Shown: positions 5,151 through 16,261 of the stretch, in pieces
Numbering within the stretch: the stretch's first letter is position 1
Layout: each line of letters begins with the position of its first letter
IMG/VR virus record: IMGVR_UViG_2547132421_000009
Reading direction: 5' to 3' (one strand)
Source of the DNA: a virus
Lineage: Duplodnaviria > Heunggongvirae > Uroviricota > Caudoviricetes
Length of the DNA: 16,261 nucleotides
Translations under genes and position numbers: made by a program
The notes under the pieces: generated by a model
What the model was told of the DNA's origin: nothing
The model's database searches: none
What the model saw: the letters and a program-made list of their open reading frames with translations, nothing else

Positions 5151-6028
5151 CCACTATTACCAAAGAGCGACTACTGACAATCAAGCAGTGGCGCGAAACA
5201 TACGGACCTGGTAGCAACGTTGTACTGCCAGCAGAAGAAGCGGAAGAACTGGCACGAATTGCTCTGGCATCACTGGAAGCAAAACCAATAGGTGCATTCC
5301 ACATTGCAGAACAGCAAGTTGACGGCACAAGTGACTACCTCAAGGATGGAGAATGGCCTATTGATAATGGAATTATTGAGGTCTACGCCGCTCCCCCCGT
5401 TCCAGTAGTACCGGAAGAAAAACCAATGCCTAACGCTCTAAGCATGCTTGAAAGAGAGATCACACAACTGATTGGTGATGCGCAGGAAGCCACTGTTACT
5501 GGCTATGAGTTAATCGCTGAAGCTTGGCGTTTGATGGATGGACAAGACCCTAAAACCAGCGATTGGCATAGCAAGGCTTCGAAGTATTTAAATTCCAATA
5601 TTGTAGAAAAAGTTGATGATGACCGTATTGATGCAATTAAGGCTGTTTTGCGTAGACTGGCTGGCAACTATCCGGATATTCCGGATAGTTCGGTGCCTAC
5701 GCCAGGAAAGGGCGTCACCGGTGAACGTATCCGCATTAAGCCGCATGTTTATCGCGAACTGGTTAACCGTCTCCACGATACAGCGATCAAGTGTGCTGGC
5801 ACCCAGCAATTACGAGAAAGAATTAGCCGTGTTTTGGGCGACGTTATTACGCCATATCATCATAAACAAGCCGAGAAAAGCGGTCTGGAAAGGTGTCATC
5901 TTGAGGCAGCATTAAACATTAAGCCGGGGCATACGCTTGGCATTATTGATGCACTGTTGGTTCATAAGATGGCCAGGGCTTTATTGTCGTTGGTGGACGC
6001 TGGTGATACAAGCGAGGGTGAAGTATGA
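5147..6028 (+). CDS. hypothetical protein (293 aa)
   Basis: Long ORF whose ATG overlaps the stop of the upstream gene (ATGA) and whose stop overlaps the next start; no family recognised. Confidence 0.6.
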   Translation: MTTITKERLLTIKQWRETYGPGSNVVLPAEEAEELARIALASLEAKPIGAFHIAEQQVDGTSDYLKDGEWPIDNGIIEVYAAPPVPVVPEEKPMPNALSMLEREITQLIGDAQEATVTGYELIAEAWRLMDGQDPKTSDWHSKASKYLNSNIVEKVDDDRIDAIKAVLRRLAGNYPDIPDSSVPTPGKGVTGERIRIKPHVYRELVNRLHDTAIKCAGTQQLRERISRVLGDVITPYHHKQAEKSGLERCHLEAALNIKPGHTLGIIDALLVHKMARALLSLVDAGDTSEGEV

Positions 6029-9023: not shown

Positions 9024-9245
9024 ATGCAATCCATTAACTTCCGTACCGCGCGCGGCAACCTTTCTGAAGTGCTCAACAATGTTGAAGCCGGGGAAGAGGT
9101 TGAAATCACCCGCAGAGGCCGTGAGCCAGCAGTAATTGTCAGCAAGGCTACTTTCGAAGCCTACAAAAAAGCGGCGCTGGATGCTGAATTTGCATCCCTG
9201 TTTGACACCCTGGACTCCACCAACAAGGAACTGGTTAACCGATAA
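9024..9245 (+). CDS. phd: Phd antitoxin (73 aa)
   Basis: Translation [73 protein letters not shown] matches P1 Phd as I recall it; GAGG Shine-Dalgarno; TAATG overlap with doc. Confidence 0.95.
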
Positions 9246-9625
9246 TGAGGCATATATCACCGGAAGAACTTATTGCGCTTCATGATGCGAATATAAACCG
9301 CTACGGCGGCCTGCCGGGAATGTCAGATCCGGGTAGGGCAGAGGCCATTATCGGGAGAGTTCAGGCCAGAGTTGCCTACGAAGAGATCACCGACCTTTTC
9401 GAAGTCTCCGCCACCTACCTGGTGGCTACAGCGAGAGGGCATATATTCAATGATGCCAATAAGCGTACCGCGCTAAACAGTGCGCTGCTATTTCTACGCC
9501 GTAACGGGGTGCAGGTATTTGATTCACCTGAACTGGCAGACCTTACTGTAGGCGCTGCGACTGGCGAGATATCTGTATCTTCTGTCGCCGCCACGTTACG
9601 TAGATTGTATGGTTCTGCGGAGTAG
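9245..9625 (+). CDS. doc: Doc toxin (Fic-fold kinase, 126 aa)
   Basis: Translation [39 protein letters not shown]...[23 protein letters not shown]... matches P1 Doc, including the HxFxDANKR motif; translationally coupled to phd. Confidence 0.95.
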
Positions 9626-9836: not shown

Positions 9837-10883
9837 GTGAAAGCCGTAATTACTCCCTTTGTACAGAAAGAGCTTGGCCTCGCCACGTTCAAAGTGGATC
9901 AGGAGGTCAGAAAGCTGGTGGAGGCTGGCCGTAAATTTATTATGGAGCCGGTGCCGCGTGAGTTAATCGAGCACATGGAAGACGGCCTCGTTGTTACCGA
10001 GCAAACCATGGCAACAAATGAGGCGTTGCAGCCGTTTTTTAACAGCGATGAACTGTTTCGCCGTATTGGTGGAATTGACGCGCTGGTGGCGTGGTTGCGT
10101 AGGAAAGAGGGTCAATGCCAGGCCGCAGATCGTAGTTGGTGTGACAACCATATTGTCCACGCTGAACGAGACAATAGCGCGGTGTTGTTGTGCTGGCATC
10201 ACGATAACCATTACCGGATGCGTGGTTTTAATGAGCTGAAAGAAACGCTGCACAATAATCGCGTTAACTGGATACTGGATGTCGCCCGTCAGGAAATGGG
10301 CCTTTCAAATAGCCATGATTTAAGTATTCAGGGGCTGTGCTGGTGGGCTTTCATGCGCAACATGATGCACCTGATGCCGGAAGAAGTCTGCCGCATATCA
10401 ATAATAAATAAGATGAAGGCTACTCCGCAGGATAGTGGACCACTGAAAGAGGCGGATATTCGCCCGTATGACGATCGCGCTACAGCATATGTTCAGATGA
10501 TGGAAGAACGCGCCGCGCCGATGCGTGCAAAAGTATGCCCTGTGGATGTTGACTCCGACCCAGGTATGGCGCATTTCAAAATACCAAAACTGCAATCGCT
10601 AAAATTACCTGAGTACATGGACTTTGTTGCTTCCCGTCCATGCTGTGGGTGTGGAGCGGCGGGAGCTGGCGCTCACATTACGCCTTATATCGTTCGTTAT
10701 AGTCGATTATGCGCGCATGACATTTATGCTATTCCTCTGTGCCAGTCATGCCAGCGTGATATTGAGCGTGACCGCGATAATTGGGAGAAGACGCACGGTA
10801 GGCTGGCGATGCATCAACGATTGTTCTTTGATTACGCGCTTGGAGTCGGCGCTATCACAAGTCATTCGTCGAGCGTTAGATAA
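9837..10883 (+). CDS. hypothetical Cys/His-rich protein (348 aa), GTG start
   Basis: AAAGG Shine-Dalgarno 6 nt before GTG. Cys/His clusters [12 protein letters not shown] and CCGCG...H...C.H......CQSCQ suggest a zinc-binding or HNH-like module. Confidence 0.6.
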
Positions 10884-10884
10884 A

Positions 10885-10914
10885 ATTGCTCTAATGTATT
10901 GCTATTTCTTTAAT
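10885..10914 (+). promoter_or_regulatory. C1 operator-like 17-mer ATTGCTCTAATGTATTG with downstream TTTAAT at -10 spacing
   Basis: 14/17 match to the C1 operator consensus with the ATTGCTCTAAT core intact; TTGCTC -17 bp- TTTAAT; directly upstream of the antirepressor-like gene. Confidence 0.5.
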
Positions 10915-10971
10915 CGAGGGTATTATATTCGACGTTGATTAGTTGACATGGGCTAATCAGTAGGTGACAGG

Positions 10972-12117
10972 ATGTTACTTAACTGGCAGGGACGCCACTT
11001 CATGGAAATAAATCACTCACGAATAACATCGTACGAGATTGCGGATTACATGATCCGCACTAAATCTCTTCTATCAGCGAAAGAACTCGCAGCAATTCTT
11101 GAAAAGGAATACCCGCATCTGGATGTCGATAAGCGCGATGTTTATCTGCGCTTAAAGGCTATCGCTGTGACCGATATCCGTGAATACCTGCTCGAACAGG
11201 GTCATCTGAATTACGCAACCGTCGCAGCCGAAGCACGCAAGGAGGCACACAGAATGAAAGCAACTAACGTTAAATCAGAAAAAATTCATGCAACTTCAGT
11301 TCAGGAATCAGAGCTGGTGGTTGTTCAGAATCAGTCTGATGAAATTCCCGTTCTGGAATGGCTGGGAGTGCGTGTAGTAACGACCGAAACTCTTGCTAAG
11401 GGGTATGGAACCGATGAAGCTAATATTCGTAAAAATTTGTCTCGCAACTCCGATCGCTTTGAAGAAGGTAAGCATTACTATCTCTTAACTGGTTCAAAAT
11501 TAAAGGAATTTAAAAGGCTGGTGACTACTAGTCACCTGGTTAGCAAATATACAAGCCAGGTAATTCTTTGGGCCGAACGCGGAGCGGCACGCATGTCTAA
11601 GATCGTAAACACAGATGAAGCATGGGCATTCTTTGAAAAACTGGAAGACAGCTACTTCCGGCAAAAAGAACAGCAACCGGTCGCAATCCCCCAAACACTA
11701 CCTGAAGCCTTGCGCCTGGCTGCCGAGCTGGCTGAACAAAAGCAGCTACTGGAACAGAAGGCCCACCAGCTAAATCAACAACTGGTGGCCGCAGCCCCCA
11801 AGGTCGATTTTGCCGACCGTGTATCAGTGGCTAAGGGGATCCTGATTGGTAATTTTGCAAAGGTTGTTGGGCTGAAGCAAAACGCGCTGTTTGCCTGGTT
11901 ACGGGAGAACGGCATTCTGATAGCGTCCGGCGGGCGTAAAAATGTGCCGTTCCAGCAGTACATAAACGCCGGATATTTCACAGTGAAAGAAGTGGTGCTG
12001 GATGATGAAGATGGCTACCAGATACGGCTGACGCCCCAATTAACGGGGAAAGGACAACAGTGGTTGACGCGTAAACTGCTCGATGCTGGCTTGTTAAAAC
12101 CGGTGGCGGCTGAATAA
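10972..12117 (+). CDS. antirepressor-like protein with ORF6N and KilA-C (ANT) domains (381 aa; start could instead be the ATG at 11002)
   Basis: Central region VRVVTTETLAKGYGTDEANIRKNLSRNSDRFEEGKHYYLLTG...LWAERGAARMSKIVNTDEAWAFFEKLEDSYF fits ORF6N; C-terminal region ...NFAKVVGLKQNALFAWLRENGILIASGGRKNVPFQQYINAGYFTVKEV fits KilA-C. Confidence 0.7.
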   Translation: MLLNWQGRHFMEINHSRITSYEIADYMIRTKSLLSAKELAAILEKEYPHLDVDKRDVYLRLKAIAVTDIREYLLEQGHLNYATVAAEARKEAHRMKATNVKSEKIHATSVQESELVVVQNQSDEIPVLEWLGVRVVTTETLAKGYGTDEANIRKNLSRNSDRFEEGKHYYLLTGSKLKEFKRLVTTSHLVSKYTSQVILWAERGAARMSKIVNTDEAWAFFEKLEDSYFRQKEQQPVAIPQTLPEALRLAAELAEQKQLLEQKAHQLNQQLVAAAPKVDFADRVSVAKGILIGNFAKVVGLKQNALFAWLRENGILIASGGRKNVPFQQYINAGYFTVKEVVLDDEDGYQIRLTPQLTGKGQQWLTRKLLDAGLLKPVAAE

Positions 12118-12149: not shown

Positions 12150-13001
12150 TTATTGCGCGCTTTCGGGGTTGTCGTTTACTGGCTGCCCCTTCTTAGTTTT
12201 ACGACTGCGCGTAACTGATGCGGCTGATTTGACCTTTTTCTCTTCGCGAGTGATGGCAATTTGTTTTTTTACATTTTCAATATCTGCCAGGCGATATATT
12301 TTTGCCTGCGGCCAGCGGTCGCAGATGATCGGTTCTATGGAGTCATAAAGGCTAAATTTTGCTTTCTCGAATTCACCGTTGATGATGATTCCATCACGGA
12401 GGGTTTCATCGCAGATAAACACGCCACACAGTGGCACATGGTAACTAACTGATTTACCATCATTGTAGTTAGGGCTACTGGAAATGTAGTGGACGCGCAG
12501 CATTGTTTCGCTAAAGCCGTGTACGCGCATACGGAATTTTTCATCCTCCGGGTACTGCTTCATTAGCTCTTTTGTTGCTTCCAGGTTCTCTATGTATTTC
12601 GCACTGTGCTCATTGAACCCCGCGCTTTTTTGGATGCGAATATCCTTATCAATCAGATGAATAATGCGGCCAGCGGTCATGTTGACGCTGTTCACAGCTT
12701 CTGTCTGATAAGTTGTAACCTTACGTACACCGCGAAGGATGTTAGGCACTGGATATAAAATAGTCTTTGGGATATTGAGGTCTGGGTACTGTTCCAGTTC
12801 CCGCGCCATTAAAGTCCATTTATCAATTTCAGCCTGAATGCTGTCCGTTTCTTTGAACGGCAGAACGACAACCGGGCGAACAGGACGACCGTCGCTGGCG
12901 GCATCAACGTGTTGGGCGCGTGCAACAGCTTTTTTTAGAAAGAGATCCCTGAAGCTGACGAACTCCTGGTACAGTTGTTCGCCGTAGACATAATTTATCA
13001 T
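12150..13001 (-). CDS. c1: C1 repressor of lysogeny (283 aa)
   Basis: 283-aa ORF (MINYVYGEQLYQEFVSFRDLFLKKAVARAQ...) matching P1 C1 in length and sequence as recalled; GGAGG Shine-Dalgarno; adjacent to coi and to the C1 operators near loxP. Confidence 0.9.
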   Translation of the reverse strand: MINYVYGEQLYQEFVSFRDLFLKKAVARAQHVDAASDGRPVRPVVVLPFKETDSIQAEIDKWTLMARELEQYPDLNIPKTILYPVPNILRGVRKVTTYQTEAVNSVNMTAGRIIHLIDKDIRIQKSAGFNEHSAKYIENLEATKELMKQYPEDEKFRMRVHGFSETMLRVHYISSSPNYNDGKSVSYHVPLCGVFICDETLRDGIIINGEFEKAKFSLYDSIEPIICDRWPQAKIYRLADIENVKKQIAITREEKKVKSAASVTRSRKTKKGQPVNDNPESAQ

Positions 13002-13702: not shown

Positions 13703-13736
13703 ATAACTTCGTATAGCATACATTATACGAAGTTAT
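13703..13736. other. loxP site-specific recombination site (34 bp)
   Basis: Exact ATAACTTCGTATA-GCATACAT-TATACGAAGTTAT: two 13-bp inverted repeats around the 8-bp asymmetric spacer, 437 bp upstream of cre as in P1. Confidence 0.97.
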
Positions 13737-14154: not shown

Positions 14155-15186
14155 ATGTCCAATTTACTGACCGTACACCAAAATTTGCCTGCATTACCGG
14201 TCGATGCAACGAGTGATGAGGTTCGCAAGAACCTGATGGACATGTTCAGGGATCGCCAGGCGTTTTCTGAGCATACCTGGAAAATGCTTCTGTCCGTTTG
14301 CCGGTCGTGGGCGGCATGGTGCAAGTTGAATAACCGGAAATGGTTTCCCGCAGAACCTGAAGATGTTCGCGATTATCTTCTATATCTTCAGGCGCGCGGT
14401 CTGGCAGTGAAAACTATCCAGCAACATTTGGGCCAGCTAAATATGCTTCATCGTCGGTCCGGGCTGCCACGACCAAGTGACAGCAATGCTGTTTCACTGG
14501 TCATGCGACGGATCCGAAAAGAAAACGTTGATGCCGGTGAGCGTGCAAAACAGGCGCTGGCGTTCGAACGCACTGATTTCGACCAGGTTCGTTCACTCAT
14601 GGAAAATAGCGATCGCTGCCAGGATATACGTAATCTGGCATTTCTGGGGATTGCTTATAACACCCTGTTACGTATAGCCGAAATTTCTAGGATCAGAGTT
14701 AAAGATATCTCACGTACTGACGGTGGGAGAATGTTAATCCATATTGGCAGAACGAAAACGCTGGTTAGCACCGCTGGTGTAGAGAAGGCACTTAGTCTGG
14801 GGGTAACTAAACTGGTTGAGCGATGGATTTCTGTCTCTGGTGTGGCTGATGATCCGAATAACTACTTGTTTTGCCGTGTCAGAAAAAATGGTGTTGCCGC
14901 GCCATCTGCCACCAGCCAGCTATCAACTCGCGCCCTGGAAGGGATTTTTGAAGCAACTCACCGATTGATTTACGGGGCTAAGGATGACTCTGGCCAGAGG
15001 TACCTGGCCTGGTCTGGACACAGTGCCCGTGTCGGAGCCGCGCGAGATATGGCCCGTGCCGGAGTTTCAATACCGGAGATCATGCAAGCTGGTGGCTGGA
15101 CCAACGTAAATATTGTCATGAACTATATCCGTAACCTGGATAGTGAAACAGGGGCAATGGTGCGCCTGCTGGAAGATGGCGATTAG
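14155..15186 (+). CDS. cre: Cre tyrosine site-specific recombinase (343 aa)
   Basis: Full-length match to P1 Cre as recalled (MSNLLTVHQNLPALPVDATSDEVRKNLMDMFRDRQAFSEHTWKMLLSVCRSWAAWCKLNNRKWFPAEPEDVRDYLLYLQARGLAVKTIQQHLGQLNMLHRRSGLPRPSDSNAVSLVMRRIRKEN...MVRLLEDGD); adjacent loxP. Confidence 0.97.
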   Translation: MSNLLTVHQNLPALPVDATSDEVRKNLMDMFRDRQAFSEHTWKMLLSVCRSWAAWCKLNNRKWFPAEPEDVRDYLLYLQARGLAVKTIQQHLGQLNMLHRRSGLPRPSDSNAVSLVMRRIRKENVDAGERAKQALAFERTDFDQVRSLMENSDRCQDIRNLAFLGIAYNTLLRIAEISRIRVKDISRTDGGRMLIHIGRTKTLVSTAGVEKALSLGVTKLVERWISVSGVADDPNNYLFCRVRKNGVAAPSATSQLSTRALEGIFEATHRLIYGAKDDSGQRYLAWSGHSARVGAARDMARAGVSIPEIMQAGGWTNVNIVMNYIRNLDSETGAMVRLLEDGD

Positions 15187-15236: not shown

Positions 15237-15548
15237 ATGAGAAAGGATTTCAACATCGACGGAAAATATGTAGTGCTGTCTGTAAGCACTAATATTCAGT
15301 CGCCAGCCGTCATTGTCACTGTAAAGCTGAGCGATAGAATGCCTGATATTGACTCAATATCCGTTGCGTTCCCTGTCAAAAGTATGCGTGGTGCTGAACA
15401 TTTCGTGATGAATGCCACCGAGGAAGAAGCACGGCGCGGTTTTGCTAAAGTAGTGTCTGACTTTGGCGAACTCTTGGATAAGGTTAACAATGTCCTTTCA
15501 ATCAGTTCAGCAAGGTCCAAAGCGTTAACAGCTTCCATGATGAAATAA
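15237..15548 (+). CDS. hypothetical protein (103 aa)
   Basis: ORF immediately downstream of cre (MRKDFNIDGKYVVLSVSTNIQSPAVIVTVKLSDRMPDIDSISVAFPVKSMRGAEHFVMNATEEEARRGFAKVVSDFGELLDKVNNVLSISSARSKALTASMMK). No family recognised. Confidence 0.5.
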   Translation: MRKDFNIDGKYVVLSVSTNIQSPAVIVTVKLSDRMPDIDSISVAFPVKSMRGAEHFVMNATEEEARRGFAKVVSDFGELLDKVNNVLSISSARSKALTASMMK

Positions 15549-15552
15549 AAAA

Positions 15553-15573
15553 AGCCTGGCAAGGAACCAGGCT
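15553..15573 (-). terminator. hairpin AGCCTGG-caaggaa-CCAGGCT with a T7 run on the minus strand (leftward terminator)
   Basis: 7-bp perfect stem; the plus strand shows AAAAAAA before the hairpin, which is TTTTTTT after it on the minus strand. No U-tract follows on the plus strand. Confidence 0.5.
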
Positions 15574-15675
15574 GCACAAAAGAGCGGGTTTGTGTTCCGC
15601 ATCCAATCAATCAGAAAGGAGTATAGCACATAGATACTAAAGTGAAAAAATGTGACTGAAGATAAACAATATAAC

Positions 15676-15699
15676 ATTGCTCTAATTGATTGTTATAAT
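15676..15699 (+). promoter_or_regulatory. C1 operator-like 17-mer ATTGCTCTAATTGATTG (15676-15692) overlapping a consensus TATAAT (15694-15699)
   Basis: 14/17 match to the operator consensus with the ATTGCTCTAAT core intact; perfect -10 hexamer 2 bp downstream; lies upstream of the serine recombinase-like gene. Confidence 0.55.
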
Positions 15700-15896
15700 T
15701 GAGCCGTGGCGTTAGTCAACTACGAAGACGTGGCCATTACCTACTTAACCAGTTCCGCCAGGGCAGCAGAGTAGGTTTCATCTCGGATGTACCATGCCTG
15801 CATGTTTTCCAGAGAAGCCCGCGAGGTTCCCGGACAGGACTCTGCCATTGCGATAGATTAAATGCAATAACCTAAAAGCGATAACGTGGTGGAAAA

Positions 15897-16261
15897 ATGT
15901 TCATCAGAGCTTATTTAAGGGCATCAACGGAAGATCAGTTTGCCGATCGGGCAAAAGAGATGCTGGGGCAGTTTGTTCAGGAGCGGGGACATAAAATAGC
16001 CAGTTACTACCGGGAGAGCATAAGCGGTACAAAACTCGACCGCCGGAACTGGGACGCTTACTGATGGACAGCCACCGCAATGATATTTTACTGGTCGAGC
16101 AAATTGACCGCCTGACCCGTCTGAGTAACAGTGACTGGATTACGCTGAAAAAGCAGATAGAACAACACGAACTGCGGATTGTCGCCTGGATGTATCCACC
16201 TCATGGCAGGCGCTGTCAGATAAAGACCCTTCGCAGGCTGACCCAATCACCCGCGCCGTGA
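15897..16261 (+). pseudogene. serine recombinase (resolvase/invertase family) N-terminal region, interrupted by two apparent single-base frame changes; continues beyond the window
   Basis: Frame 0: MFIRAYLRASTEDQFADRAKEMLGQFVQERGHKIASYYRESISGTKLDR then off-frame stop. Frame +2 (ORF 16064-16261): ...DILLVEQIDRLTRLSNSDWITLKKQIEQHELRIVA. Frame +1 continues LDVSTSWQALSDKDPSQADPITRAV... The catalytic STxDQ motif and the V..LDRL.R motif are typical of serine recombinases. Restoring one C at about 16048 (CGCCGG to CGCCCGG) and one at about 16186 (GCCTGG to GCCCTGG) gives a continuous protein. Confidence 0.65.

Follow-up and report, generated by a model that had tools for sequence, protein, structure and literature searches.

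The right-hand end of the 16,261-bp stretch of DNA analyzed here (the window) carries, near cre and loxP, the beginning of a gene related to serine recombinases whose reading frame is interrupted. A preliminary description of this locus, made from the sequence alone, had proposed that an intact version would give the element a second site-specific recombinase next to Cre. The question raised by positions 15897 to 16261 is whether they belong to a working recombinase of a P1-like phage-plasmid or to something else. The evidence presented below identifies them, with high confidence, as a dead tnpR resolvase gene left behind by a Tn3-family transposon.

Identity of the interrupted gene

15897 to 16261, plus strand: catalytic N-terminal portion of a tnpR pseudogene (small serine recombinase), truncated by the window end (Pfam PF00239, alignment to intact genes and proteins, PGAP)

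Three frames are read across the pseudogene (15897 to 16042, 16043 to 16183, and 16184 to 16261), producing a 55-amino-acid (aa) open reading frame (ORF) at 15897 to 16064 (MFIRAYLRASTEDQ...) and a second ORF, in another frame, at 16064 to 16261. The raw 55-aa ORF matched the Resolvase domain PF00239 (E = 1.8e-6; 28.5 bits, with a cutoff of 23.3), as did the frame-joined translation within the window (122 aa; E = 2.9e-18) and the full repaired protein, completed from relatives (E = 9.1e-20). The earlier reading of a serine recombinase gene with two single-base frame changes was therefore borne out, both by the match of the repaired translation and by two 1-bp gaps relative to an intact gene. 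The part of the gene inside the window corresponds to the N-terminal (5') two thirds of a small serine recombinase and contains the nucleophilic Ser10 in the motif YLRASTEDQ (Y-x-R-x-S-T-x-x-Q), which is invariant across homologues. The remainder of a recombinase had been expected downstream, and in relatives the rest of the domain and a putative helix-turn-helix (HTH) do follow, but behind a stop codon; the C-terminal HTH_23 match, which lies outside the window and past this TAA, is weak (E = 1.7e-4; 21.7 bits versus a cutoff of 24.6 bits). Judged by its domain and catalytic motif, the gene can be assigned to the small serine recombinase family, of which it is not a functional member.

The closest intact gene was that of pAPEC3702, encoding the 211-aa "recombinase family protein" WP_000470623.1, to which the DNA was 94.2% identical over 413 bp; the same res-proximal repeats and ribosome-binding site precede both genes. 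Intact TnpR copies of enterobacterial plasmids are transcribed divergently from a Tn3-family tnpA. The window differs from this family in its two 1-bp deletions, in a TAA just beyond the window end, in a tnpA reduced to 34 codons, and in a tnpA-tnpR spacer of which 48 of 167 bp remain. The family of the intact resolvase is very common in enterobacteria (2,929 members in the 90% identity cluster, with the exact sequence on 996 contigs), its members are named "resolvase" or "recombinase family protein" in their sources, and the repaired resolvase was 88 to 93% identical to members of its cluster. No NCBIfam equivalog cutoff was reached by the resolvase. Like Sin/Bin3 (Tn552), RP4-type ParA, and gamma-delta/Tn3 resolvases, the protein combines a catalytic domain at the N-terminus, with Ser10, and, putatively, an HTH at the C-terminus. 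Tn552 Bin3 (2r0q) was the best solved relative (E = 1.7e-6), a gene annotated as parA ("plasmid stabilization protein, resolvase") was 37% identical, and the gamma-delta resolvase was distant (E of about 4e-4 to 9e-4). P1 Cin and other serine invertases share the superfamily (PF00239) but are set apart by context, as the surroundings here are transposon debris without an invertible segment or crossover sites.

Transposon remnant and the displaced ref gene

15747 to 15848 (102 bp), minus strand: internal fragment of a Tn3-family transposase, 34 codons equivalent to TnpA residues 624 to 657 (Pfam, BLASTP, PGAP)
15849 to 15896, plus strand: tnpA-tnpR spacer (res/promoter), last 48 of 167 bp (alignments, intact spacer sequence, repeat analysis)
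2924 to 5115 of the relative L001, minus strand: three intact cargo genes past the pseudogene, for a SnoaL-type "ester cyclase," a DJ-1/AraC GlxA-type regulator, and an MBL-fold hydrolase (domain search)

The transposase fragment matched DDE_Tnp_Tn3 (Pfam; E = 1.9e-5) and was identical at 27 of 34 positions (79%; BLASTP, E = 1e-18) to the TnpA of pAPEC3702 and pPK8568, which is encoded beside intact homologues of the resolvase. PGAP annotated it as "incomplete; missing N-terminus and C-terminus," and no functional Tn3-type DDE transposase is present, as the 34-codon fragment is all that is left. The intact spacer holds three 14-bp-spaced ATGCGATA-type repeats beside tnpR and an inverted copy, TTATCGCAT, 50 to 90 bp further away. 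In the spacer remnant, the ribosome-binding site and the ATGCGATA-type repeats close to tnpR survive, and the distal inverted arm TTATCGCAT is gone, so that, with 48 of 167 bp left and the subsites putatively assigned, a complete res site beside tnpR is absent. The approximately 200 bp upstream of the gene, previously taken for its leader, are a composite of P1 DNA, transposase fragment, and res remnant; their reading as a regulatory leader was rejected in favor of composite junk DNA.

The right-hand end of the transposon lies outside the window and was located in relatives. There, a 38-bp Tn3-type inverted repeat (IR), CTTAACGTACAATATCTTCCGTTTCCCAAACGGAGCCC, occupies positions 5358 to 5395 of L001 and abuts ref; it reads CTTAACGT...GGAGCCC, with the reverse complement GGGCTCCGTTTGGGAAACGGAAGATATTGTACGTTAAG, and a similar IR is found in pPK8568. 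A repeat of the GGGG...TAAG type occurs at one end of the remnant, the left IR being absent: the left transposon end has been deleted together with the adjoining P1 DNA, where a 5-bp target-site duplication would stand. With neither the left IR nor the duplication preserved, the ends cannot prove that the element entered ref by transposition. The DNA around the pseudogene is the remnant of a Tn3-family transposon, one that falls short of the family definition. The proposed second recombinase next to Cre is instead the tnpR of this remnant, accompanied by a TnpA fragment, a res remnant, cargo, and an IR, and is neither a phage component nor a partner of Cre/loxP.

The cargo trio follows the pseudogene in about 70 to 100 plasmids, and for the GlxA-type regulator, species-representative genomes contained one relative, 39% identical, from Streptosporangium. 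A plasmid search with the cargo segment for an intact ancestor returned the same P1-like context and one unrelated fragment, and an exact 30-mer across the tnpR/cargo junction had 0 matches in genome contigs. An intact ancestral transposon, with the same cargo and intact tnpA and tnpR, was not found in the plasmid, contig, or relative searches, and the original element is therefore reconstructed by analogy with relatives bearing other cargo. In pPK8568, a second Tn3-type 38-bp terminal repeat, CTTAACGTACAATAATTTTCGATATCCAAACTGACCCC (L005 5957 to 5994), interrupts the transposase fragment at the point that corresponds to 15808/15809 of the window and lies downstream of an IS1 and another transposon with a further tnpR pseudogene; this arrangement indicates repeated Tn3-family insertions at that spot.

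To the left of the remnant, the window follows P1.

12150 to 13001, minus strand: c1
13703 to 13736: loxP, exact over 34 bp
14155 to 15186: cre
15237 to 15548: c8 (the 103-aa neighbor of cre in the preliminary description)
15549 to 15745, plus strand: P1-type c8-ref intergenic DNA (alignment to NC_005856, 1830 to 2140)
15676 to 15692, plus strand: Oref, a C1 repressor operator, identical to that of P1 at 17 of 17 positions (NC_005856 annotation 1962 to 1978, mapped by alignment)
15694 to 15699, plus strand: P2ref -10 hexamer TATAAT (P1 annotation 1980 to 1985, mapped by alignment)

A P1-order backbone was confirmed by loxP-cra-cre-c8, c1, and C1 operators; the window holds 7 C1-operator-like sites (no more than 3 mismatches to ATTGCTCTAATAAATTT) compared to 0.1 expected by chance. 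Homology to P1 ends at about 15740 to 15745, corresponding to P1 positions of about 2026 to 2031, and P1-like backbone relatives that are free of the insert match only to 15739 to 15745. That P1 has ref at this place and that the gene content differs had been suspected correctly: ref occupies 2077 to 2637 of NC_005856, directly after c8, and an intact copy is found in that position in P1 as well as in pMRE162, the nearest relative of the backbone (99.4% identity). P1 positions of about 2030 to 2311 (approximately 280 bp, comprising the P1ref -10, the ref ATG, and about 78 codons) have been swapped for a transposon remnant of approximately 3.37 kb. In full-length relatives, ref resumes at P1 position 2312 right after the IR, and the 3' 336 bp of ref are followed by mat. 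With the P1ref -10, the start codon, and about 78 codons replaced, ref is also a pseudogene in this lineage. The operator and TATAAT hexamer at 15676 to 15699 had been recognized as real elements and are so, unchanged from the P1 locus (Oref/P2ref-ref-mat); their assignment to the recombinase did not hold, as they are the orphaned promoter of ref.

Several further features of the backbone were observed. Operator-like sites at 1343, 3484, and 10885 precede ORFs that are not part of the P1 core. Between doc (9245 to 9625) and c1, positions 9837 to 12117 contain a DUF968 gene (9837 to 10883) and a KilAC-type antirepressor-like ORF (10972 to 12117), where pTB-nb1 has a 1,194-bp hypothetical gene, presumably pacA, and a terminase gene; packaging genes are missing at the doc-c1 position of this P1-like element. 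The left end of the window truncates an IS3 copy (1 to 1229) with minus-strand orfB (1 to 654) and orfA (866 to 1174), and the right end falls inside the tnpR pseudogene, which belongs to a multicopy sequence family (3 places in pPK8568). As both ends lie in repeats, the window appears to be a short-read contig broken at repeats.

How the segment came to stand in this plasmid admits a second account, which is possible but less probable: a patch brought in by homologous or illegitimate recombination from a plasmid that already carried a decayed transposon fragment, rather than transposition into ref. The backbone of the window is nearest to plasmids with an intact ref, such as pMRE162, and its right-hand part shares 99.9% identity with plasmids of the pTB-nb1 type, which shows mosaicism; the loss of the left IR and target duplication also agrees with a patch. 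Such an exchange would concern only the acquisition of the region by this plasmid and would leave the identity of the pseudogene unaffected. The precise Tn3-type IR abutting ref at the right end argues that the original event, in some P1-like ancestor, was the insertion of a transposon.

Lesions in the reading frame

16042 to 16045, plus strand: frame change 1, one C missing from a run of three (CGCCCGG to CGCCGG), which disrupts the codons for Arg-Pro-Glu (alignment; CP151167 keeps CCC)
16183 to 16184, plus strand: frame change 2, loss of a base between these positions (GTCAGCCTC to GTC-GCCTG; intact homologue GTC AGC CTC, Val-Ser-Leu)

Alignment to the intact pAPEC3702 gene contained exactly two 1-bp gaps within the window. 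They lie after 16042 and 16183, a few bases from where they had been placed previously (about 16045 to 16050 and 16184 to 16188). One extra C had been thought to restore continuity at both sites. A C was indeed lost at the first site, but at the second the codon is that of Ser97 (AGC) in 9 of 9 intact homologues aligned, so that an extra C would restore the frame and not the ancestral sequence, and the base missing after 16183 was most likely an A. A third lesion lies approximately 127 bp past the window end in relatives, where GGC AAA CAG of the intact gene has become GGA TAA CAG, with the loss of the nearly invariant Lys165. With two 1-bp deletions in the window and this in-frame TAA downstream, the gene has no uninterrupted reading frame.

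Frame change 2 and the TAA were present in all six relatives compared base by base. CP151167 (L006) carries both of these lesions and lacks frame change 1, and JBRBQD010000003 (L007) has an additional 4-bp deletion (GACC) and a further TAG stop; together, these variants give the order of decay within the lineage. Residues that hardly vary among intact proteins have also been substituted in the lineage (E24G, M82I, P101S, K150Q, and R179W), which reflects relaxed constraint. A substitution private to the window relative to the relatives aligned (AAC to AGC at 16019 to 16021; N41S), at an otherwise nearly invariant residue, is consistent with neutral drift. PGAP labels the gene "recombinase family protein; frameshifted; internal stop" in four RefSeq plasmids (pTB-nb1, pPK8568, CP151167, and JBRBQD010000003). 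The repairable gene envisaged earlier is not what was found: the same lesions stand in independent assemblies, together with a nonsense codon, and the gene is a genuine, progressively decaying pseudogene. As far as can be predicted from its sequence, no functional recombinase can come from the locus.

It is very improbable that both frame changes are sequencing or assembly errors, such as a base dropped from a short homopolymer or a miscall at a Dcm site, in a gene that is intact in the cell. Frame change 1 does lie in a C run that is complete (CCC) in one relative, CP151167, and frame change 2 adjoins a CCTGG motif, a type of motif at which long-read basecallers err. The same sequence nevertheless recurs without gaps in dozens of independent assemblies from various countries, hosts, and laboratories; frame change 2 and the TAA were in every one of the relatives inspected; a nonsense substitution is not an indel-type error; and the gene would still be broken after repair of frame change 1.

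A functional recombinase of the phage-plasmid, either a second one beside Cre or a Cin-like invertase (P1-type elements use serine invertases such as Cin), expressed from a C1-controlled promoter and passing the lesions by programmed frameshifting, is scarcely credible and already largely refuted: the C1 operator and promoter upstream are genuine and the first frame preserves the catalytic motif with Ser10, but the promoter is that of ref and is parted from the gene by foreign antisense transposase DNA, two +1 shifts and readthrough of the TAA would be needed, relatives are accumulating more deletions and stops, the res region is cut down to 48 bp, and intact homologues are always beside a Tn3-family transposase and not in phages. 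Programmed frameshifting was rejected on the same grounds, namely, the two shifts and the stop to be bypassed and the further decay in relatives.

Distribution and history among P1-like plasmids

A 713-bp query spanning the P1-derived DNA and the remnant (15549 to 16261) had matches over 80% or more of its length in 64 of 5,426 complete Escherichia coli genomes and in at least 58 PLSDB plasmids. The top matches listed were 99.7 to 99.9% identical and gap-free, with equal spans (713 to 713 bp). Lesions were checked base by base in six relatives, and in the other records they are inferred from these equal-length, near-identical matches. The dead gene is thus an ordinary one, carried by dozens of sequenced E. 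coli P1-like plasmids. No match to 15549 to 16261 was returned by megablast against deposited phage genomes: phages lack the transposon part, and the P1-derived part has diverged too far to share 28-mers. At the protein level, a search of phage genomes likewise found no close homologue, the best match being 45% identical and in unrelated phage records only. The feature, ordinary debris of a mobile element, is already known: RefSeq plasmids carry it with a pseudogene annotation.

The order of events, like the loss of function of the res remnant, is a reconstruction. A transposon with the arrangement IR, tnpA (minus strand), res, tnpR, cargo, IR would have entered ref of a P1-like phage-plasmid. 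Later deletions would have taken almost the whole of tnpA along with the left IR, and would also have removed some 119 bp of the res region and the 280 bp or so of P1 DNA next to the transposon. Once the transposase had gone and res was incomplete, the resolvase would have been left without a substrate and would have decayed neutrally. The first losses may have been the A after 16183 and the nonsense change from AAA to TAA, with the C after 16042 lost subsequently, in most copies. The remnant can neither transpose nor resolve, and the plasmid studied here probably gained the region by recombination among P1-like plasmids. It is conceivable, although very unlikely, that transcription from the C1-controlled P2ref continues past the transposase fragment, across the dead tnpR, and convergently into the three intact cargo genes. 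Antisense interference would then make expression of the cargo depend on whether the phage-plasmid is in its lysogenic or its lytic state, and the widespread retention of the module in P1-like plasmids would reflect selection for the cargo.

For annotation, the segment should be labeled as a tnpR pseudogene within a transposon remnant. There is no case for "correcting" its frame changes as if they were sequencing errors, and the gene is no candidate for a second recombinase of the Cre/loxP system. For the biology of these elements the finding matters little: it adds one more phage-plasmid that gained cargo by way of a Tn3-family transposon, which then decayed in place, at the cost of ref.
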